A stretch of 20,000 nucleotides of DNA from an uncultured virus (IMG/VR IMGVR_UViG_3300008450_005828). Its lineage: Duplodnaviria > Heunggongvirae > Uroviricota > Caudoviricetes. Location of the stretch: IMG/VR virus record IMGVR_UViG_3300008450_005828. One strand, written 5' to 3'. The notes beneath the pieces are model-generated. The model saw nothing but the letters and a program-made list of their open reading frames with translations, made no database searches and was not told the origin of the DNA. How positions within the stretch are numbered: the stretch's first letter is position 1; the number at the start of each line of letters is the position of its first letter. Shown here piece after piece: positions 1,962 through 19,856 of this stretch. The position numbers were made by a program, and so were the translations under genes.

Positions 1962-2821
1962 TAGATAAATCCTCTGTCACTGCCAATGTATCCACCTTTG
2001 GCAAATTCATCAAGATTAAATTTGCTTACTTCGTCTCTGCTGTATGTTGGCGATACTGTAACGTTTAATCTGCTTAGTGTAGGAACATAGGTATATGAAC
2101 TTGTTGTATTATCTGTTGATGCTCCTTCAACCACCGGAACTTTAATATAATCAACCGAATCAGGGAGGTCCATGGAAAATAATTTTACAACCACTGGCAC
2201 TCTATTAAAAATAAAGTCTCCATAGCCACTCAAATAAACCAACGGAGGTGGCGAACCTCTGTTTGGCGATTCACCATAGAACATTTTAGTAACACTTCTT
2301 AAGAAATGTACCGATGCCATCCAGTATCTACCGTCGGCTTCGTTTTCAACTGGCCATTCAGCAGTAATAGTAATGTCTTCAACTGCACTATTTTGGTATG
2401 TAGGAAATGGATAATTAGTATGTACAGGAGCAAGTGTATTGTAGTTTGCAGTATGGCTAACTAAAATCTGTGGAGTAGTAGGAAATACCATACTTTTGTT
2501 TGATGTTACTAGAGGAGCTAAAATTGATGACGACGAAAATGAATCAATTTCCGGTAAATGAATTCTAACTCGCCAATCTTCGCTAGCAGTTTGTGATGCA
2601 GCACTGTAAGAACTGTACGATCTTATAGTATCATTGAATTCTGCTCCTACTGGAAGATTACCCAGTCGATTTTGTGAAATAAACTTTGTAGGATTTGTAA
2701 AATCTTGAATTGTTCGTTTAATATTGCTTTCAAAATTATTAACAAAGTTTATTGCACTACCAATTTTATTAGCAGTGGAACTGACTTTGTTAACTAATTT
2801 GCTTAAACCTGATAATGACAT
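1961..2821 (-). CDS. Baseplate tail-tube initiator/cap-like protein (gp48/gp54-like)
   Basis: Contains MVFPTTPQI...HFLRSVTKMFYG...GSPPPLVYLSGYG...VPVVV, a tube-initiator-like motif set, and sits upstream of the LysM/gp53 gene as in contractile tail loci. The start is moved from the track's 2836 to the ATG at 2821, which follows a GGAG Shine-Dalgarno (SD). Confidence 0.6.
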   Translation of the reverse strand: MSLSGLSKLVNKVSSTANKIGSAINFVNNFESNIKRTIQDFTNPTKFISQNRLGNLPVGAEFNDTIRSYSSYSAASQTASEDWRVRIHLPEIDSFSSSSILAPLVTSNKSMVFPTTPQILVSHTANYNTLAPVHTNYPFPTYQNSAVEDITITAEWPVENEADGRYWMASVHFLRSVTKMFYGESPNRGSPPPLVYLSGYGDFIFNRVPVVVKLFSMDLPDSVDYIKVPVVEGASTDNTTSSYTYVPTLSRLNVTVSPTYSRDEVSKFNLDEFAKGGYIGSDRGFI

Positions 2822-2839
2822 TTTCGAATACTCCACATA

Positions 2840-2847
2840 TATTTAGT
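2840..2847 (-). promoter_or_regulatory. Late-type promoter core (ACTAAATA) driving leftward baseplate genes
   Basis: TAAATA at 2845-2840 on the minus strand, just upstream of the SD. It matches the core of the T4 late promoter TATAAATA. Confidence 0.55.
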
Positions 2848-2875
2848 TGACAAAATTAACTACGTAGTTTAAAAT
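2847..2875 (+). promoter_or_regulatory. Sigma70-type promoter for gp55
   Basis: TTGACA (2847-2852), 17 bp spacer, TAAAAT (2870-2875). An AGGAG SD follows before ATG 2899. Confidence 0.75.
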
Positions 2876-2898
2876 AAATTATACTTCTAGGAGAAAAA

Positions 2899-3723
2899 AT
2901 GAAGAAAGTAAACTATCTTAATAACAAGGATATGCTTTTAGAAATACATAAATCAAAAAATACTTTTTCGAGTTTTGTAGAATCTGAATATGCGGATTAT
3001 GATATTATACTACCCAGTATAGATAAAATAAACATACGAACCATTGCTGAAGCAAAGAAAAATAGAGCAAAAAAACTATCGTCGGAAGCATACGAAAAAG
3101 AAAAGACTGCTGGAAACAAAGTTAAACTAGCAGATGTCGAAATAGATTACAAAAAAATAGAAAAAAAAGATTTAATTTTTCGTATTACAACATATGACCA
3201 TATTCCTGACGAAGCAGGTCGTAAGAAAAATCCAAAAACCATAGCCGATGGAAAAACAAAGTTAAACTTCCCTCCATTTCAACATTGGAAATTCAACGAC
3301 AACGACGAATTAATCTGTGTAGGCAAAAGTCACTGGTCTGGCGGTATGGAAAACGGACATTTTAGTAAAGATCACGGCCGTGCAACCAATAAACTTGCTC
3401 TTATGTGGATGAAACTCTGTGATAGATACGCTACACGCGGTAACGTTCGTGGTTATACCTACAACGATGAGATGAAAGGGCAAGCAATCCTGCAACTTTC
3501 ACAGATTGGCCTTCAATTTGACGAATCTAAATCGCAAAATCCGTTTGCTTACTACACTGCTGCCGTCACAAACAGTTTTGTTCGTGTTATTAACATCGAA
3601 AAGCGTAATCAGAACATAAGAGACGACATTTTAGAAATGAATAACTTGAATCCTAGTTTTACTAGACAAAGTGCAGGCGAATTTGAAGCAGGACTCAAAC
3701 GTTTTAACGACAGTCATGAATAA
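2899..3723 (+). CDS. gp55: Late-transcription RNA polymerase sigma factor, gp55-like
   Basis: N-terminal NYLNNKDML and C-terminal RGYTYNDEM...FDESKSQNPFAYYT...NSFVRVINIEK match gp55-family motifs. It lies next to gp47/gp46, the usual neighbours in T4-like phages. Confidence 0.85.
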   Translation: MKKVNYLNNKDMLLEIHKSKNTFSSFVESEYADYDIILPSIDKINIRTIAEAKKNRAKKLSSEAYEKEKTAGNKVKLADVEIDYKKIEKKDLIFRITTYDHIPDEAGRKKNPKTIADGKTKLNFPPFQHWKFNDNDELICVGKSHWSGGMENGHFSKDHGRATNKLALMWMKLCDRYATRGNVRGYTYNDEMKGQAILQLSQIGLQFDESKSQNPFAYYTAAVTNSFVRVINIEKRNQNIRDDILEMNNLNPSFTRQSAGEFEAGLKRFNDSHE

Positions 3724-3784: not shown

Positions 3785-4795
3785 TTGTTTAAGAAAGCCG
3801 CTGTATTCACCGACATCCACTATGGTATGAAGGGCAATTCGCGTGTTCATAATCAAGATTGCGAGGATTTTGTTGATTGGTTCATTAAAACTGCTAAAGA
3901 AAACGGTTGTGAAACCGGAATCTTTTGTGGTGATTGGAATCACAACAGAAACAGTCTCAATCTAACTACTATGGACAGTGGTTTACGTTCATTGGAAAAA
4001 CTTGGTCAAGCATTTGATCAATTTTTTATGTTTGCAGGCAACCATGATCTCTACTACAAAGATAAAAGAGATGTAAAGTCAACCGAATTTGCAAAACACA
4101 TACCCGGAGTTACTGTGGTCAATGATGTTCTTGTAAAAGATGATGTTGCCCTAGTGCCTTGGCTAGTAGGCGAGGAATGGAAACGTATCAGCAAAATCAA
4201 AGCACGATACATGTTTGGACATTTTGAACTTCCTAGTTTTTACATGAACGCAATGGTTCAAATGCCCGATCACGGCGAACTTAAATCAGAACACTTTGTG
4301 AATCAAGACTATGTGTTCAGTGGACACTTCCATAAAAGACAGGTTCAAGGTAAAATTCATTACATCGGCAATGCGTTTCCGCACAACTATGCCGATTCGT
4401 GGGATGATGCACGTGGAATGATGATTCTAGATCGCGAAAACAATCAGGAACCTGAGTACATCAACTGGCCAGATGCTCCAAAGTACCGTACAATTGCACT
4501 TTCGCAGTTGATTGATCAGAAAGACACACTGCTAAAGAGCAAAATGTATCTTCGTGTTACTATCGATATTCCAATTTCGTTTGAAGAAGCAAATTTTATT
4601 AAAGAAACATTTATAAAAGAATACGATTGCAGAGAAATTACGCTTATTCCACAGAAACAACTCGACGAAATGACGTCAGACATTGATATTGCTAAGTTTG
4701 AAAGCGTAGATCAAATTGTTTCCAATGAAATTCTTGCAATTGACAGTGACAATTTCGATAAGTCACTGCTACTAAACATCTATAGTGAACTATGA
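3785..4795 (+). CDS. gp47: Recombination endonuclease subunit, Mre11/SbcD-like metallophosphoesterase
   Basis: Phosphoesterase motifs DIHYG, GDWNH, GNHD, GHFE and SGHFH. TTG start with SD; ATGA overlap with the next gene. Confidence 0.92.
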   Translation: MFKKAAVFTDIHYGMKGNSRVHNQDCEDFVDWFIKTAKENGCETGIFCGDWNHNRNSLNLTTMDSGLRSLEKLGQAFDQFFMFAGNHDLYYKDKRDVKSTEFAKHIPGVTVVNDVLVKDDVALVPWLVGEEWKRISKIKARYMFGHFELPSFYMNAMVQMPDHGELKSEHFVNQDYVFSGHFHKRQVQGKIHYIGNAFPHNYADSWDDARGMMILDRENNQEPEYINWPDAPKYRTIALSQLIDQKDTLLKSKMYLRVTIDIPISFEEANFIKETFIKEYDCREITLIPQKQLDEMTSDIDIAKFESVDQIVSNEILAIDSDNFDKSLLLNIYSEL

Positions 4796-6573
4796 CCATA
4801 AAAATCAAAGACTTAACTGTTAAAAACTTTATGAGTGTGGGTAATGTTACCCAGGCTGTTGACTTTAACCGTGAACAGCTCACTCTAGTGCTTGGCGAAA
4901 ACTTAGATCAAGGAGGTGACGATTCTGGTTCTCGTAACGGTACAGGTAAAACCACAATTATCAATGGTTTATCGTACGCCCTGTACGGCCAAGCACTAAC
5001 TAATATCAAGAAAAATAACTTAATTAACAAAACCAACAACAAAGGTATGTTGATTACGTTAAATTTTGAGAAAAACGGTATAACTTACCGTATTGAACGC
5101 GGAAGATCACCTAATATTCTTAAATTCTATGTTAACGACATAGAACAGTTTGCCGAAACTGTGGATGAAAGCCAAGGCGATAGCAGAGAAACACAAAAGG
5201 CTATCAACGATCTGCTAGGTATGAGCCATAATATGTTTAAACACATTGTTGCACTGAATACCTATACAGAACCGTTCCTTAGTATGCGAACCAATGAACA
5301 AAGAGAAATAATCGAACAACTTTTAGGTATTACACTGCTTTCAGAGAAGGCAGAAACACTAAAAGAACAAATAAAAACAACCAAAGACCTAATCACTGAG
5401 GAAACTCTTAAGATCAATGCTATCAAGTCAAGCAATGAGAAGATAACTCAGAGTATTGAAACACTTAAGAGTCGTCAACGTGCATGGAATCTTAAGAAAA
5501 ATCAAGATATCGAGAAACTAAAAGAGTCTATCAACGAACTTGAACAACTAAACATTGAAAAAGAACTCGATGCACATGACAAACTGGTAAACTGGACTGC
5601 TCTCAACGGCGAAATTGTATCGTTGAACAAACAAAAGAGTACACTAGGCTCTGCTTTGCTTCGTGCAGACTCATCTATTGAAAAAATTGCAAAAGAAATT
5701 GACGATCTTGCTGACGCAATGTGTTTTACTTGTGGTCAAGCACTTCATGCAGACAAGAAGGCTGCTATTCTTTCAGAAAAAGAAAAAGAACTGCATGAGG
5801 CAGTGCAGTATCAAGACGAAATTAGTAAAAAACTCAAAGTTGTTGAAGATTCCTTGTTTAAAATTGGTGATATCAACGGAAAGCCCAGTACTTTCTACGA
5901 AACTGCAAAAGAAGCATACGATCATAGAAGCAATGTTGATAGTTTGAAGTCTGCACTGGGGTTGAAACACAACGAAGAAGATACTTACGCAGCACAAATC
6001 GACGATCTTGAGACCACAGCCATACAAACCATCACATGGGATGTGGTAAACGATCTTACTTTGCTCAAAGAACACCAAGAGTTCTTGCTTAAACTGCTTA
6101 CAAACAAAGATTCGTTTATTAGAAAAAAGATTATTGAACAGAATCTGTCATATCTCAATCAAAGACTCACTTACTACTTAGATAAGATAGGATTGCCGCA
6201 TCAAGTCAAGTTCTTAAACGATCTCAATGTTGAAATTACACAACTTGGACAAGATTTAGACTTCGACAACCTTTCAAGAGGTGAAAGAAACAGACTTATC
6301 CTTGGCTTGAGTTTTGCTTTCCGTGATGTTTGGGAAAGTTTGTATCAAGGTGTTAACTTATTGTTCATTGACGAGTTGATTGACTCAGGTATGGACACTG
6401 CTGGCGTTGAAAATTCTCTTGCAATTCTTAAAAAGATGGGTAGAGAACGCAACAAAAACATATTCCTTATCAGTCACAAAGATGAATTGATTGGTAGAGT
6501 AAACAATGTTCTTAAGGTTATTAAGGAAAACGGGTTTACTTCTTATGCAAACGATATTGATATAGTACAATGA
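4792..6573 (+). CDS. gp46: Recombination endonuclease subunit, Rad50/SbcC-like ATPase
   Basis: KNFMSVG, Walker A NGTGKTT, coiled coils with a central zinc hook CFTCG, ABC signature LSRGE, Walker B LLFIDE and H-loop ISH. Confidence 0.93.
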   Translation: MTIKIKDLTVKNFMSVGNVTQAVDFNREQLTLVLGENLDQGGDDSGSRNGTGKTTIINGLSYALYGQALTNIKKNNLINKTNNKGMLITLNFEKNGITYRIERGRSPNILKFYVNDIEQFAETVDESQGDSRETQKAINDLLGMSHNMFKHIVALNTYTEPFLSMRTNEQREIIEQLLGITLLSEKAETLKEQIKTTKDLITEETLKINAIKSSNEKITQSIETLKSRQRAWNLKKNQDIEKLKESINELEQLNIEKELDAHDKLVNWTALNGEIVSLNKQKSTLGSALLRADSSIEKIAKEIDDLADAMCFTCGQALHADKKAAILSEKEKELHEAVQYQDEISKKLKVVEDSLFKIGDINGKPSTFYETAKEAYDHRSNVDSLKSALGLKHNEEDTYAAQIDDLETTAIQTITWDVVNDLTLLKEHQEFLLKLLTNKDSFIRKKIIEQNLSYLNQRLTYYLDKIGLPHQVKFLNDLNVEITQLGQDLDFDNLSRGERNRLILGLSFAFRDVWESLYQGVNLLFIDELIDSGMDTAGVENSLAILKKMGRERNKNIFLISHKDELIGRVNNVLKVIKENGFTSYANDIDIVQ

Positions 6574-6842
6574 GCGACGAAGACGATATACACGATAAAC
6601 TAACCAAAGCATATTTAGAATATTTCAAGGCAAATGCTGCATTTGAACAGCGTCCAGGAGAGTTAAAGCGTCGTGAAGCACGACGCTGGCTTTCTGTTAT
6701 CAGCAAACTTGCAAAGGAAAGACGTAATCAAATTATGGAAACACATTTGAAAAAGTTTGATGACGGTAGAGTAAACAATTGGAAGTACGCATTGAATGCT
6801 CGTCAAAAGAAGGCAGAGAAGAAGAAAGCCGGCGATACATAA
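6570..6842 (+). CDS. Small basic helical hypothetical protein
   Basis: 90 aa ORF coupled to gp46 by an ATGA overlap. K/R-rich (RREARRWLSVISKLAKERRNQI), so possibly nucleic-acid binding. Confidence 0.7.
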   Translation: MSDEDDIHDKLTKAYLEYFKANAAFEQRPGELKRREARRWLSVISKLAKERRNQIMETHLKKFDDGRVNNWKYALNARQKKAEKKKAGDT

Positions 6843-6845
6843 TGT

Positions 6846-7271
6846 ATGCAATGGATATATCAAGGACAAATCATAGACACTCTTCCAGAAGATTGTATTG
6901 GGTTTGTCTATGAGATTACAAATCTACTCTCAGGACGCAAATATATAGGCAAGAAACTAGCAAAGTTCACAAAAACAAAGTACAAAGTAGTAAAACTCAA
7001 GAACGGCACCAAGAAAAAACAAAAAATTAAAGAAAAAATCGATTCAGATTGGCAAACTTACTACGGATCTAACGATAAACTCAATCAAGATGTACAAGAA
7101 CTAGGCACAGAGAATTTTAAAAGAGAAATACTTTATTATTGCAAATCCAAGGCAGAGTGTAGTTACGTTGAAGCAAGAGAACAATTTGCTCGACAGGTTT
7201 TAGAATCAACAGATTACTACAACGGTCAGATCAGTGTTCGTGTTCACGGTTCGCACATTTTAAAATCATAA
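6846..7271 (+). CDS. GIY-YIG family endonuclease (Seg-like, free-standing)
   Basis: GFVYEITN...KYIGKK (GIY-YIG variant), YYGS, FKREIL, a catalytic-type Glu (YVEARE) and a terminal YYN motif. Confidence 0.8.
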   Translation: MQWIYQGQIIDTLPEDCIGFVYEITNLLSGRKYIGKKLAKFTKTKYKVVKLKNGTKKKQKIKEKIDSDWQTYYGSNDKLNQDVQELGTENFKREILYYCKSKAECSYVEAREQFARQVLESTDYYNGQISVRVHGSHILKS

Positions 7272-7273
7272 TA

Positions 7274-7680
7274 GGCAAAGCATACAGCACACAAGGTCGG
7301 CGGGCCAGTTCGTAATACCGCTGTGGAAAAATCGGTTTGATACCCGAACACGTAACATATTGATTGTGGCGAACCCTAACAGTTGATATAGAATGCTTGC
7401 TGTCATTCAAAAACACCGCTGCTCCTAAAAACCGTAATCACTGGAACGAGGATACGGGTAGAAAAATAGTTTCTACACTATAAAACAAAATTATAGGTTA
7501 TAAACTATATTTCGATGTCGACGCAGGTAGGGAAAAGGTCAGAGTCCCTGGAGTTGGTGTATAAACAAAAAACCTGCTTCCAATGTCTTGGCTGGTGATA
7601 CTCACAGAAAGTTTTCAAGACGACGGGACCGTAACAGGTTCCGTCTGACCAGATTAATCTACAGAAAATTTATACACTTC
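7274..7680 (+). ncRNA. Candidate large structured non-coding RNA (family not recognised)
   Basis: No credible ORF. Many helices: 7298-7303/7318-7323, 7357-7367/7379-7389 (3 G-U), 7413-7425/7550-7560, 7432-7436/7453-7457, 7528-7533/7545-7550, 7585-7591/7615-7621 and 7622-7630/7637-7645, plus loop pairings. The G-U pairs favour the + strand. The ends are approximate. Confidence 0.6.
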
Positions 7681-7756
7681 GTGCTTATATAATTAAAAAA
7701 AAGATTATGTATTGAGCGTAAGCGAAGATACAGATGAACGCAGTTCATCTTGCTAT

Positions 7757-7764
7757 GATAAATA
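7757..7764 (+). promoter_or_regulatory. Late-type promoter GATAAATA
   Basis: One mismatch from the T4 late consensus TATAAATA. It lies upstream of an AGGA SD and ATG 7791. Confidence 0.6.
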
Positions 7765-7790
7765 AAATAAATCATTTAGGATCTAATAAA

Positions 7791-8333
7791 ATGAAAATCA
7801 ATCAAGTTATCTCTGAATCAGAATTAGATGAAGCAATTCCATTTACTAAACAATGGAAACAAGACAGAAAAGTAGGTAAAAATATCAAAGCCGATGCTGG
7901 ACAAATAACTGCTGATCTCAAAACTTGGATGAAACATAGTAGATTACCAAACATTACTATTGATCAATTTAAAAATTTCTTAGATCAAAAAGGACTTGAT
8001 CCAGCCACTGTTGATAGTATTGCTGGAGATCGTACAAGTGGCAACACAGGTACAGAACCCGATGCTCCTTTAACTTCTGCAGAAGTTAAACAATACGTTG
8101 ACAAAGCTGTTAGAGCAGCGTTCCAATCTGCTGGTCCCGGATCGAGAAAAAGTAGATATGCTAGACCTTCTACTCCACCTGCTACAGGAGCAGGTAATCC
8201 GCCACCAGGTGGTAACCCACCACCGCCATCAGGTGGTAACCCACCACCGCCATCTGGCGGTGCTCCTGATATAACAGCCTTTGTTAATAGTTTAACACCT
8301 CAACAAAAAGCTGCACTAAAAGCAAGACTTTAA
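7791..8333 (+). CDS. Hypothetical virion/internal head protein with Pro/Gly-rich tail
   Basis: The start is moved from the track's 7734 to ATG 7791 (SD AGGA 7778-7781, downstream of the late promoter). The N-terminus MKINQVISESELDEA carries I/L-x-E prohead-protease-type sites. Confidence 0.65.
   Translation: MKINQVISESELDEAIPFTKQWKQDRKVGKNIKADAGQITADLKTWMKHSRLPNITIDQFKNFLDQKGLDPATVDSIAGDRTSGNTGTEPDAPLTSAEVKQYVDKAVRAAFQSAGPGSRKSRYARPSTPPATGAGNPPPGGNPPPPSGGNPPPPSGGAPDITAFVNSLTPQQKAALKARL
8207..8254 (+). repeat. Exact 24-bp tandem repeat x2 encoding GGNPPPPS
   Basis: AGGTGGTAACCCACCACCGCCATC at 8207-8230 and 8231-8254, preceded by a degenerate GNPPP copy. Confidence 0.9.
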
Positions 8334-18649: not shown

Positions 18650-18664
18650 TAGTTGAAGAAATAG

Positions 18665-18695
18665 AAAAAATAGGCCCTACGGGGCCTATTTTTTT
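18665..18695 (+). terminator. Strong intrinsic (bidirectional-type) terminator after major capsid
   Basis: AAAAAATAGGCCC-TACG-GGGCCTATTTTTTT: a perfect stem, a C(UACG)G UNCG tetraloop and a T-run. Confidence 0.92.
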
Positions 18696-18696
18696 G

Positions 18697-18704
18697 GATA
18701 AATA
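18697..18704 (+). promoter_or_regulatory. Late-type promoter GATAAATA
   Basis: Directly after the terminator and upstream of the AAGGAG SD and ATG 18722. Confidence 0.6.
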
Positions 18705-18721
18705 TTCTAAAGGAGAAAAGT

Positions 18722-18910
18722 ATGTTCACTGGTACAATTTATAAATTTTCTAAAACTCATGGGTATATTAAACCGGATCGATATGGAAGTTTTGCAGGCG
18801 ACATACTTTTTGATAAACGAGAATACGATTTTCTTTTATCTGATCGTGTAACCTACGAACAGTATGAAAAAAATAATAGAAAATACGCATACAATATAGA
18901 AAAAATTTAA
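18722..18910 (+). CDS. Cold-shock-domain-like (OB-fold) small protein
   Basis: MFTGTIYKF...HGYIKPD...DILF...DRVTYE...YAYNI follows the CSD pattern (TG.VK.F, GYGFI.P, D.F.H, G..V.FE, A.NV) in degenerate form. Strong SD. Confidence 0.65.
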   Translation: MFTGTIYKFSKTHGYIKPDRYGSFAGDILFDKREYDFLLSDRVTYEQYEKNNRKYAYNIEKI

Positions 18911-18917
18911 AAATTAC

Positions 18918-18946
18918 TTGACAAAGACAAAAAAGAGTATTATAAA
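18918..18946 (+). promoter_or_regulatory. Sigma70-type promoter
   Basis: TTGACA (18918-18923), 17 bp spacer, TATAAA (18941-18946). Confidence 0.6.
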
Positions 18947-18969
18947 CAGTATCTGCACCAAACAGTAGA

Positions 18970-19242
18970 GTGAGGGCTACCGTGGAACAAGATACGTTTT
19001 GGAATGATATCATTGATACTCTAAAACAATGGCGTCGTAAACATCGTAGTTACGCTCCGCAAATTTACAAAGTTCAAAAAACTTTTGAAACTATGCATAT
19101 TCAGTATCAAAAGAATATGCAACAACATTTTCAAAAACGATCTGTTGGCAGTCTTGCACGAGCAGAACAAATAAAGCAAGAGGCCGAGCAGATGTTTAAA
19201 AAAATATCAAAATTAGAGTTTTTAGCAACACTATCAAAATAA
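18970..19242 (+). CDS. Hypothetical protein
   Basis: 90 aa ORF between its own sigma70-like promoter and a terminator. The true start may be GTG 18982, after GAGGG. Confidence 0.65.
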   Translation: MRATVEQDTFWNDIIDTLKQWRRKHRSYAPQIYKVQKTFETMHIQYQKNMQQHFQKRSVGSLARAEQIKQEAEQMFKKISKLEFLATLSK

Positions 19243-19264
19243 TCCGCCTGGTGCGGATTTTTTT
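19241..19264 (+). terminator. Intrinsic terminator
   Basis: AATCCGC-CTGGT-GCGGATT followed by a T-run. Confidence 0.75.
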
Positions 19265-19293
19265 ATGGGTATATAACCCATTTCTTCTTATTT

Positions 19294-19301
19294 GATAAAT
19301 A
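19294..19301 (+). promoter_or_regulatory. Late-type promoter GATAAATA
   Basis: Upstream of a ~75 nt structured leader and ATG 19383. Confidence 0.6.
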
Positions 19302-19309
19302 CTATGTCA

Positions 19310-19382
19310 AGAGTGTGCCTTACAGCATACTTTATGCGGAAACCCGCCGCGTAGACCTAGAACGTCAATTAAGGAGAAAACA
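19310..19382 (+). promoter_or_regulatory. Structured 5' leader (candidate cis-regulatory RNA)
   Basis: Hairpins 19311-19318/19325-19332, 19333-19339/19347-19353 and 19354-19356/19364-19366 precede the AAGGAG SD. The first two contain G-U pairs. Confidence 0.5.
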
Positions 19383-19856
19383 ATGGGACGTCCACTACCA
19401 AGAAAATTATTCGGTCCTACAGATGCAACAACACCAGCATCGGGAGATACATGGTCAGCAGATGGTGCTGACCCACAGGGCCGTACACTAACATCACAAG
19501 CACAAAACTGGAACAAAGGTTATAACATTCCAGTTTACAAAGCACGTATTACTGGTCAACCTATGGACAGTATGGGAACAGGATCTGGTCCGTACATTCT
19601 ATCACAAAAAGGTTCTAGAAAATTTAAAGTAAGAACTGACAACGGCGACGGCATTTGTAAATTAGTCAACGACGACGACAGTTCGGTATTAGCAGAAGGC
19701 GAAATGGTACTACAAGGCTTTATTACTGCCGACGGTTCACCAATTTATTTACAAAGAATTACTAAAAGAAGAGCATACGACTTTAGTGGAAATGCTTACT
19801 CATGGTATGTAGATAACGATTCAACTGCAAATATCATCATGTTGACTGCTATCTAA
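19383..19856 (+). CDS. Hypothetical late (probably virion structural) protein
   Basis: 157 aa beta-rich ORF (MGRPL...YILSQKGSRKFKV) with a strong SD, under a late-type promoter. Confidence 0.7.
   Translation: MGRPLPRKLFGPTDATTPASGDTWSADGADPQGRTLTSQAQNWNKGYNIPVYKARITGQPMDSMGTGSGPYILSQKGSRKFKVRTDNGDGICKLVNDDDSSVLAEGEMVLQGFITADGSPIYLQRITKRRAYDFSGNAYSWYVDNDSTANIIMLTAI

Follow-up and report, generated by a model that had tools for sequence, protein, structure and literature searches.

We report that the 519-nucleotide (nt) gap at positions 7272-7790 of a 20,000-nt stretch of phage DNA (hereafter the window) holds a real, conserved and structured RNA, encoded on the + strand, which we call the twin-box RNA. 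The window belongs to a 113-kilobase (kb) IMG/VR virus record from an uncultured member of the Caudoviricetes (IMGVR_UViG_3300008450_005828), and the gap lies directly after a gene for a SegE-like GIY-YIG nuclease. The RNA contains three pseudoknots backed by covariation and two identical 7-nt boxes, it fits no catalogued RNA family, and its own family extends across a large clade of T4-like phages, uncultured inhabitants of lakes and seas. With at least 120 lake and sea contigs carrying it, the RNA is a common yet unnoticed part of phage biology; word searches of the open-access literature, by which absence is not provable, returned no description of it. An original prediction, made from the letters of the window, had placed here a non-coding RNA of ~400 nt with multiple pseudoknots, unlike transfer-messenger RNA (tmRNA), RNase P RNA or group I/II introns. 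Each of the strings it quoted is found at its position, and its central claim stands, as neither Rfam nor ARAGORN matches the gap to a known family; its further step, from such complexity to a large ribozyme or the scaffold of an RNA-protein particle, is an inference.

A blastn search of GenBank phages, reaching down to ~65% identity, returned no match to the gap. Relatives were obtained from IMG/VR, where anchoring on the gene gp46 yielded 80 loci (numbered here with the prefix L) with 61-80% identity in gp46, in which the gap sequence recurs at 66-81% DNA identity. An exact pattern taken from the most conserved block of the RNA retrieved at least 120 IMG/VR contigs, and all 120 pattern loci were confirmed with an nhmmer profile. 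Of the gp46 loci, 42 extend for 1300 nt or more past the gene, and 37 of these contain the RNA; of the remaining five, two are cut short and two (L069 and L070) hold a divergent form that we term type 2. This form occupies the same slot after the GIY-YIG gene and is also present in four loci that match only in the 3′ tail. It departs from the main type over most of its 5′ and central parts and keeps the layout ACUC-box...hairpin...UGAC..CAAUCU-box (examples are L069 6440-6830 and L065 6430-6800, and further ones L070, L010, L037 and L045). L027 is a variant with a shorter 5′ domain, and L088 is a distant member in a different gene context. Scanning 185,579 species genomes with the pattern returned only four contigs from metagenome-assembled genomes, and this near-absence marks the RNA as a phage RNA; one such contig, L207, was discarded as a chance match inside a coding region. 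A scan with a 15-base type 2 pattern gave mostly chance matches, with matched boxes in ~30 of 87 distinct stretches.

For the structural analysis, 72 full-length copies were reduced to 60 that are less than 97% identical, and these 60 relatives underlie the pairing statistics given below. Helices were chosen by an unbiased scan of all column pairs and then counted on a MAFFT alignment of 60 rows and 579 columns; the structure is thus based on pair counts and nhmmer profile searches, not on a covariance model. In the resulting model of 64 pairs, standard pairs fill 92.5% of 3820 cells, compared with 82.7% after shuffling and 28-43% when the columns are slid by one to three positions. Both sides change in 36 of the 64 pairs (368 cells versus 99 expected), and the covariation score of 0.320, against 0.146 for shuffled alignments, was reached by none of 500 shuffles. 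The conservation and covariation on which the original prediction had staked its case are therefore present. H9 was recounted per sequence, as its column count was off by one register, and H13 was counted in the same way because its loop length varies. The elements of the RNA, all on the + strand, are as follows ("double-changing" pairs are those altered on both sides).

7273-7412, + strand: 5′ domain, made up of hairpins H2 to H5 and closed by a pseudoknot; helices 1-5 are 86-99.7% paired, 19 of 28 pairs double-changing.
7284-7289 with 7398-7403, + strand: H1, ACAGCA/TGCTGT, the second strand lying in the H5 loop (pseudoknot 1); 99.7% paired.
7298-7323, + strand: hairpin H2, CGGCGG/CCGCTG, with the conserved loop GCCAGUU...; 99.4% paired.
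7332-7347, + strand: hairpin H3, TCGG/CCGA; 86.4% paired, 4 of 4 pairs double-changing.
7357-7389, + strand: hairpin H4, ATATTGA (7357-7363) with TTGATAT (7383-7389); 98.6% paired, 4 of 7 pairs double-changing.
7391-7408, + strand: hairpin H5, GAATG/CATTC, its loop carrying the 3′ strand of H1; 98.0% paired, 5 of 5 double-changing.
7421-7425 with 7550-7554, + strand: long-range helix H6, GCTCC/GGAGT; 92-97% paired, 5 of 5 double-changing.
7432-7457, + strand: hairpin H7, CCGTA/TACGG, with the near-invariant loop GGAACGA(A/G)G; 86.6% paired, 5 of 5 double-changing.
7458-7512, + strand: AU-rich hairpin region that varies in length and sequence with lineage (alignment blocks).
7520-7522 with 7538-7540, + strand: GAC with GTC in the H9 loop (pseudoknot 3); 100% paired, 3 of 3 double-changing.
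7523-7528 with 7572-7577, + strand: H8, GCAGGT/ACCTGC, crossing H6 (pseudoknot 2); 97.8% paired, two pairs double-changing.
7529-7549, + strand: hairpin H9, AGGGA/TCCCT, with the conserved loop AAAGGUCAGAG; helix of at least 4 base pairs (bp) in 57 of 60, counted per sequence.
7585-7621, + strand: hairpin H13, GTCTTGG/TCAAGAC, with box 1 in its loop.
7604-7610, + strand: box 1, ACAGAAA, preceded by CUC, in the H13 loop.
7622-7645, + strand: hairpin H10, GACGGGACC/GGTTCCGTC, followed by conserved TGAC...AATCT; 98% paired.
7661-7667, + strand: box 2, ACAGAAA, preceded by UCU, in a single-stranded stretch.
7675-7683, + strand: short hairpin past box 2, read from the alignment; weak in the window, longer in many relatives and often with a TTCG loop.
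7708-7732, + strand: hairpin H11, whose loop GAGCGTAAGCGA is conserved (tandem G-A followed by a closing C-G pair).
7733-7749, + strand: last hairpin, GATGAAC/GTTCATC, with a CGNAG-type loop; the highest covariation sum of all stacks in the unbiased scan (3.46).
7757-7764, + strand: GATAAATA, ahead of the next gene, similar in sequence to the T4-type late promoter consensus.

The helices are maintained through coordinated replacement of both strands. Three pairs of H1 occur as C-G in 44 relatives, A-U in 13 and G-C in 2, as C-G in 52 and U-A in 8, and as A-U in 46 and G-C in 13, respectively, and the GCGG/CCGC segment of H2 is swapped for GCCC/GGGC, GCAG/CUGC or GUGG/CCAC. Bulges in the relatives blur the alignment of H3, and the insert carried by H4 varies by lineage, up to a three-way junction. 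Further along, H6 takes the form AUGCUAC/GUAGCAU in L027, the GAC/GTC pairing becomes GCU/AGC in the distant member L088, and H9 is found in five covarying versions (UGGG/CCCA in 46 relatives, AGGGA/UCCCU in 4, AGGA/UCCU in 2, AAGGA/UCCUU in 2 and UGGA/UCCA in 1). The mean best helix of H13 is 5.75 bp, compared with 3.93 bp (maximum 4.23) in 200 shuffles, and a helix of at least 5 bp is present in 46 of 60 relatives in several covarying versions. The 3′ strand of H10 is the most conserved block of the family. The loop motif of H11 lies within 420 nt of box 2 in 56 of 60 relatives, flanked in 53 of these 56 by a stem of at least 4 bp whose sequence varies; in nine, GAGCG..AGCGA is replaced by GAGUG..AACGA.

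Much of this fold had been anticipated. H2 and H3 were both among the proposed helices and are kept and covarying, as are the hairpins at 7585-7621 and 7622-7645 at the 3′ side. Of an 11-bp helix proposed at 7357-7389, the central 7 bp hold, which is the part for which conservation is reported, and a long-range helix ACACCG-ct-GCTCC is borne out in its GCTCC/GGAGT portion but not in ACACCG/TGGTGT (38.9% paired). Three further proposals are not upheld by the alignment: the outer helix GCAAAGCAT/ATGCTTGC is only 33.8% paired, the real closing pairing of the 5′ domain being H1; kissing loops CCAGT/ACTGG are 64.9% paired, with a standard middle pair in 1 of 60; and a competing helix GTGTATAAA/TTTATACAC is 56.2% paired. 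Of the three pseudoknots originally put forward, GCAGGT/ACCTGC, which crosses GCTCC/GGAGT, is the only one among the three that covariation supports, namely H1 with the H5 loop, H8 crossing H6, and GAC/GTC in the H9 loop. The third proposed pairing, GGTCAGA/TCTGACC, is indeed complementary (96.9%) but shows no double-sided change, and its GTC covaries instead with GAC 7520-7522. This possibly leaves a CAGA/TCTG contact alone, which would compete with the base of H10.

The defining feature of the family is the pair of boxes. The repetition of ACAGAAA had already been noticed, and both copies are retained in relatives as identical boxes: among 116 distinct members having both parts, the two 7-nt boxes are identical in 114, and the sequence they share differs from lineage to lineage. 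Main-type boxes are ACAUGAA (85), ACAUGAU (9), ACAUAAU (7), ACAUAAA (5), ACAGAAA (2), ACGUGAA (2), ACAUGAG (2), ACAUCAA (1) and ACAGGAA (1); type 2 carries either GAAUAAU or GAAUGAU, AACAAA is the box of a third subtype (L223, L225), and L088 represents a further variant. When box 2 was taken from a member with a different box, 2 of 2320 trials gave identity over all seven positions. A tree from which the box columns had been left out implies, for its 60 rows, a minimum of 12 changes of box state; the ACAGAAA of the window sits among close relatives with ACAGGAA and ACAUGAA. By mutual information, each variable column of one box is tied most strongly to its counterpart in the other. Similarity extends to 2-4 flanking nt beside the boxes; no repeat is seen in the sequence that separates or follows them, and the unit that they enclose varies in length between 49 and 67 nt and is not a multiple of three. 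From these patterns of change, we read selection as probably acting on the identity of the boxes, not on their sequence.

No complement to the boxes was found. The exact reverse complement does not occur at a conserved place within 2.5 kb on either side, mutual information reveals no complementary column in the RNA, and the 113-kb record contains neither a pair of box complements nor an extended complement. A perfect 8-bp hairpin is present in the same record at ~75528-75560, ~4.8 kb before the window; its 3′ arm equals box 2 with its flank (UACAGAAA) and is followed by a U-rich run. This hairpin is probably a terminator and the likeness a coincidence. To our knowledge, the twin boxes have no counterpart in catalogued RNA families. 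Several specific identities for them were considered and rejected. A codon-like "specifier" for transfer RNA (tRNA) is at odds with the lack of tRNA genes in the record and with flanking positions that vary too, and a stop-codon or ribosomal-bypass site with the lack of an open reading frame (ORF) and with the same box coming after the landing site. Box C/D or k-turn motifs would lose their GA in the variants, the consensus of the hammerhead core does not apply, strings resembling RNase P or signal recognition particle RNA find no model match, and the spacing of 57-64 bp is too short for site-specific recombination between the boxes.

Several lines of evidence identify the product as an RNA read from the + strand. 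Open + frames in the relatives are short, with a median of 50 codons for the longest, and lengths that are not multiples of three make up 1107 of 1453 gap runs in the alignment; neither measure supports a conserved ORF in the gap. The + strand of 7272-7700 folds at -110.8 kcal/mol, compared with -94.6 ± 5.0 kcal/mol for 100 dinucleotide shuffles, none of which folds as well (z = -3.21); the expectation that the region would outperform shuffled controls is thereby confirmed. For the reverse strand, z is -0.28 and 37 of 100 shuffles are equally good, whereas the longer segment 7273-7750 gives z = -3.14. G-U pairs account for 11.4% of 3340 helix cells, and as these would be C-A mismatches on the opposite strand, they argue for an RNA read from the + strand. 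A promoter scan found one weak sigma-70-like site, TTCACG-18-CATAAT (7243-7272), which is no better than in shuffles, and no intrinsic terminator was detected in the promoter and terminator scan; the motif ATAAATA recurs in some relatives.

Comparison with known RNAs was made with Rfam 15. At the gathering threshold, the only match in the whole window is freshwater-2 at 19313-19385. When matches with E up to 10 were admitted for 7150-7900, six were returned at chance level (11-18 bits, compared with thresholds of 48-150), and a search of 13 divergent relatives at E up to 1 gave one unrelated match. ARAGORN detected no tRNA or tmRNA in the window or in the 113-kb record. Accordingly, tmRNA was rejected, as neither ARAGORN nor the Rfam tmRNA model matches, and so was RNase P RNA, with no match at E up to 10 and with a CR-V-like ACAGAAA that varies freely in relatives. 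A group I intron finds no Intron_gpI match (gap, E up to 10; 13 relatives, E up to 1) and does not suit the layout, since the upstream ORF has its own stop codon and the downstream ORF is not conserved between loci. A T-box leader has neither an Rfam T-box match nor a downstream gene related to aminoacyl-tRNA. An OMEGA RNA would be obligately paired with IscB or TnpB, whereas the neighbours here are PF19835 or PF24608 proteins and the GIY-YIG family commonly occurs without the RNA.

The OMEGA comparison is instructive nonetheless, as HEARO and omega RNAs of IscB or TnpB are likewise large structured RNAs whose gene immediately adjoins, in the same orientation, that of a small nuclease. They differ in that the nucleases here are GIY-YIG or PD-(D/E)XK and not RuvC/HNH enzymes, in that no Rfam HEARO match is found, and in that the twin-box RNA has no single long guide at either end, just two 7-nt boxes in its interior. 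Type III antitoxin RNAs (ToxI and phage pseudo-ToxI) resemble it as folded units bounded by the same short A-rich sequence, and the bounding A-rich sequence of ToxI-type RNAs differs between systems. Such RNAs, however, consist of whole 34-45-nt units in tandem beside a toxin gene, whereas here 7-11 nt are repeated within an RNA of ~400 nt; in the lack of a tandem whole-unit repeat, this class was rejected. No ToxN-like gene was recognised among the neighbouring ORFs scanned, the whole 113-kb record not having been searched for one.

In size and complexity, the closest likeness is to GOLLD, ROOL and OLE, which likewise reach several hundred nt, are rich in helices and pseudoknots, and combine invariant loops with peripheral inserts specific to the lineage (partly described in PMC12286853); GOLLD and ROOL are often phage-borne. 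The twin-box RNA differs from all three in its architecture and in the lack of a covariance-model match (gap, E up to 10; 13 relatives, E up to 1), and no twin boxes are known for them. Polynucleobacter-1 (RF01718, for which 37 bits are needed) shares the freshwater origin (PMC2864571) but is a much smaller motif of 141 positions, and it was rejected with no matches at E up to 10 in the 113-kb record or the gap. A further parallel concerns the gene neighbourhood. PMC2330249 and PMC13096335 describe Seg-type GIY-YIG genes that cluster with the tRNA genes of T4- and T6-like phages, SegB cutting inside these tRNA genes and driving their preferred inheritance and amplification. Both there and here, a Seg-family GIY-YIG gene adjoins conserved structured-RNA genes in a myophage; the RNA here, however, is not a tRNA, and the nuclease is SegE-like, of 141 amino acids (aa), and near-fixed in the clade instead of sporadic.

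The neighbourhood of the RNA was surveyed in 78 distinct loci that are complete at the 5′ end and include at least 650 nt upstream. A GIY-YIG homolog ends no more than 60 nt before the RNA in 61 of them and 61-1000 nt upstream in 11; it lies directly downstream in two and 1.36 kb downstream in one (L108), and is absent from the locus in three. In L046 (5981-6535), L115 (1396-1899) and L093 (3-200), the upstream slot holds a gene for a PD-(D/E)XK nuclease (PF24608), so that two unrelated nuclease folds use the same slot, and near L088 and L099 no nuclease could be recognised. The more distant phages L087 and L150 show the opposite arrangement: there, the RNA ends at ~2645 and ~2622 and the GIY-YIG gene starts at ~2644 and ~2603, respectively, and the usual closing hairpins are lacking. 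The nuclease gene is present in a single copy in the 113-kb record, as are genes of the same family in 306 GenBank phage records, mostly cyanophages; no twin-box RNA follows the gene in Melnitz and S-SRM01, the two GenBank phages examined. The RNA and the nuclease thus each occur without the other. Homologs of the SegE-like protein are widely annotated as "NAD synthetase" (for example in P-HM1, S-SRM01 and phiN3, and in PHROG 447), which looks like a propagated misannotation.

On the other side, the gene downstream of the RNA differs between loci. Homologs of the 180-aa ORF that follows in the window were detected by tblastn after the RNA in few loci (~9 rows, several of which are the same contig twice), and this ORF is not a conserved partner. 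Together with the other gene contexts in which the RNA is found (L087, L150, L108 and L088), the varied downstream gene argues that the RNA is not a cis-regulator of the next gene. Weak small-terminase matches (phrog_309) were noted in L108, directly after the RNA (2783-3184, E = 4e-5), and in L088 at a distance of ~1.6 kb (4165-4569, E = 6e-4); for a 173-aa ORF beside L088, searches gave nothing usable. The RNA itself starts with AGGCA(A) (7273-7277 in the window), and two to four extra AGGCA copies at intervals of ~10-25 nt are found ~80 nt upstream in L108, L074, L161, L101, L013 and L007. AGGCA is not enriched genome-wide in the 113-kb record.

The reading that we prefer, in which we place slightly less than even confidence as a whole, is that of a stand-alone, trans-acting structured RNA of ~415-480 nt, transcribed from the + strand, with specificity boxes and a homing-type nuclease as its neighbour. 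From 5′ to 3′, it would comprise the 5′ domain, a 3′ domain built on two more pseudoknots, H13 presenting box 1, H10, a tail with box 2, and three closing hairpins, which would shield its 3′ end. The GIY-YIG stop codon lies so close to the RNA that a promoter would hardly fit in between, if at all, and co-transcription with the nuclease gene is therefore probable. The boxes would form the specificity part, with one outside partner reading both; possible partners are a U-rich nucleic acid that pairs twice and a factor that cuts or binds RNA at a specific sequence. The knotted body might position the boxes or bind a constant partner. The nuclease would not be a subunit of an RNA-protein machine; its gene would use the RNA gene as a landing place and aid its spread, much like SegB with the tRNA genes of T4 and T6.

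Several points weigh against this proposal. In 74 of 78 loci, the nuclease gene and the RNA are neighbours with the same orientation, also in L087 and L150, where they stand the other way round; simple synteny would predict less than this. That the boxes are read in trans follows by elimination, as no partner was found, and a homology-dependent step inside the RNA explains identity without sequence constraint at least as simply. Finally, none of the 20 listed sequencing runs that hold the gap sequence is on record as RNA; among the rows listed, they are mostly lake, freshwater and "fungus" metagenomes. Four runs were guessed to be RNA, of which two are marked "probably DNA", and they consist of assembled contigs only, which show no strand, ends or level.

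Such a homology-dependent step is the essence of the first alternative, in which the RNA processes or templates itself, either by cutting and rejoining at the boxes, with excision or circularisation of the 49-67-nt H10 unit, or by template switching of a polymerase. It would account for the conservation of identity alone through many variants and at least 12 concerted switches, for the lack of a complementary partner nearby, for the inter-box unit being the most conserved part of the RNA, and for a multi-pseudoknot body of ribozyme-like complexity. We nevertheless consider it unlikely, given that no self-cleaving ribozyme or intron model matches, that the 113-kb record (about a third of the genome) encodes no reverse transcriptase or RtcB ligase, that no internal guide is complementary to the boxes, and that the unit is variable in length and not a multiple of three.

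The steady company of a nuclease speaks for an RNA-guided or RNA-scaffolded enzyme, one particle of RNA and nuclease whose boxes would pair with both strands of an inverted-repeat DNA target that is then cut by two nuclease copies. Adjacency on the same strand in either order (74 of 78 loci) favours this model, as does the replacement of GIY-YIG by an unrelated PD-(D/E)XK fold in three loci. The catalytic model covers residues 3-129 of the 141-aa protein, leaving no room for a DNA-binding domain, and the boxes are exposed, fast-evolving and guide-like. Yet the same GIY-YIG family is found in 306 GenBank records, the two examined lacking the RNA, and no nuclease is recognisable near L088 and L099, while that of L108 is 1.36 kb off. 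Seven nt would also be very short for a guide, and the 113-kb record holds no inverted pair of box complements, so that we rate this model as rather unlikely. Common to these two alternatives is the notion that the boxes are programmable, serving as (a) two 7-nt guides for the neighbouring minimal nuclease or (b) matched sites at which the H10 unit is cut and joined or the template is jumped. Doubtful as it is, this notion would have considerable consequences: a new class of RNA-guided nuclease under (a), an RNA-catalysed or polymerase-driven step that releases or reiterates the H10 unit under (b), and in either case a ribozyme-grade RNA of ~400 nt with a freely re-writable 7-nt address kept in duplicate.

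A cis-acting role is suggested by the close spacing of the two genes. The RNA could be the 3′ untranslated region of the nuclease mRNA (the 5′ leader in L087 and L150), controlling its stability or translation, or it could terminate transcription and insulate the late genes that follow. The nuclease ORF ends a few nt from the RNA or overlaps its first ~30 nt in relatives, in L087 and L150 the nuclease start follows the end of the RNA by 2-17 nt, and three stable hairpins and the late-promoter-like ATAAATA come next. A length of ~400 nt with three pseudoknots and invariant loops, however, far exceeds known untranslated-region elements, the RNA persists with another nuclease or none adjacent, and it does not follow the same GIY-YIG genes in Melnitz and S-SRM01, the two further phages examined; we regard this option as distinctly unlikely.

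The joint and fast turnover of both sites would also fit a decoy for a host RNA-cutting defence of the ToxN or MazF type, the boxes being pseudo-substrate sites that must both match the recognition sequence of the host enzyme and so change together with host or toxin. As A-rich single-stranded segments flanking a folded unit, they do resemble the cleavage sites of type III antitoxins. Seg-type nucleases are, moreover, reported to adjoin anti-defence RNA genes and to amplify them (PMC13096335). The repeat here covers no more than 7-11 nt, though, instead of a 34-45-nt unit, and the large conserved RNA around the boxes is left unexplained, which makes a decoy improbable. Least probable by far is an element acting as DNA, with direct repeats around an inverted repeat bound by an oligomeric protein such as a small terminase or replication initiator: the spacing of ~5.5-6 helical turns, the weak small-terminase-like ORFs downstream in L108 and L088 and the AGGCA repeats upstream in several loci would fit, but the terminase matches are weak and the helices flanking the boxes covary with many G-U pairs in a strand-specific fold, which points to RNA.

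Whichever mechanism applies, and also for the trans-acting RNA that we favour, the identity of the boxes by itself points to a mechanism based on matching, be it guiding, templating, or cutting and rejoining, and mechanisms of this kind have repeatedly yielded new tools. Large, intricately folded RNAs without an assigned job are rare, and most of those later solved have turned out to be ribozymes, riboswitches or the cores of RNA-protein machines. The steady presence of a small nuclease gene extends the recent finding of Seg-type endonucleases that lie beside RNA genes and spread them.

The genes surrounding the twin-box RNA in the window are mostly of T4 type, and are listed below.

2899-3723: late sigma factor gp55, T4-type gene.
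3785-4795: gp47, T4-type gene.
4792-6573: gp46, T4-type gene.
6570-6842, + strand: 90-aa ORF between gp46 and the nuclease gene, conserved, helical, with a basic tail.
6846-7271, + strand: SegE-like GIY-YIG nuclease, 141 aa (Pfam PF19835, E = 1e-33).
7272-7790, + strand: 519-nt gap with the twin-box RNA, directly after the nuclease gene.
7791-8333, + strand: 180-aa ORF of no family (no Pfam or PHROG match).
Past the 180-aa ORF: further T4-type genes, namely a gp26-like hub gene (minus strand), portal gp20 and the major head protein.

The nearest cultured phages, namely Phosso, Atu_ph07 and the PA5oct group, are ~48-52% identical in gp46 and portal. CheckV estimates the completeness of the 113-kb record at 32%, which suggests a very large genome. 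For the 90-aa ORF, the only lead is a weak one to the histone-like protein Hc1 (Atlas score 0.87, below the trust level). The gap had been described as the only long non-coding stretch in the window, which is overstated: it is long and non-coding, but a second gene-poor stretch at 18650-19382 contains just two short ORFs without a family and, at its 3′ end, the freshwater-2 RNA motif (RF02980; 19313-19385, + strand), which scores 56.8 bits against a threshold of 49.9. This motif ends at the start codon of a 157-aa, family-less ORF at 19383-19856.

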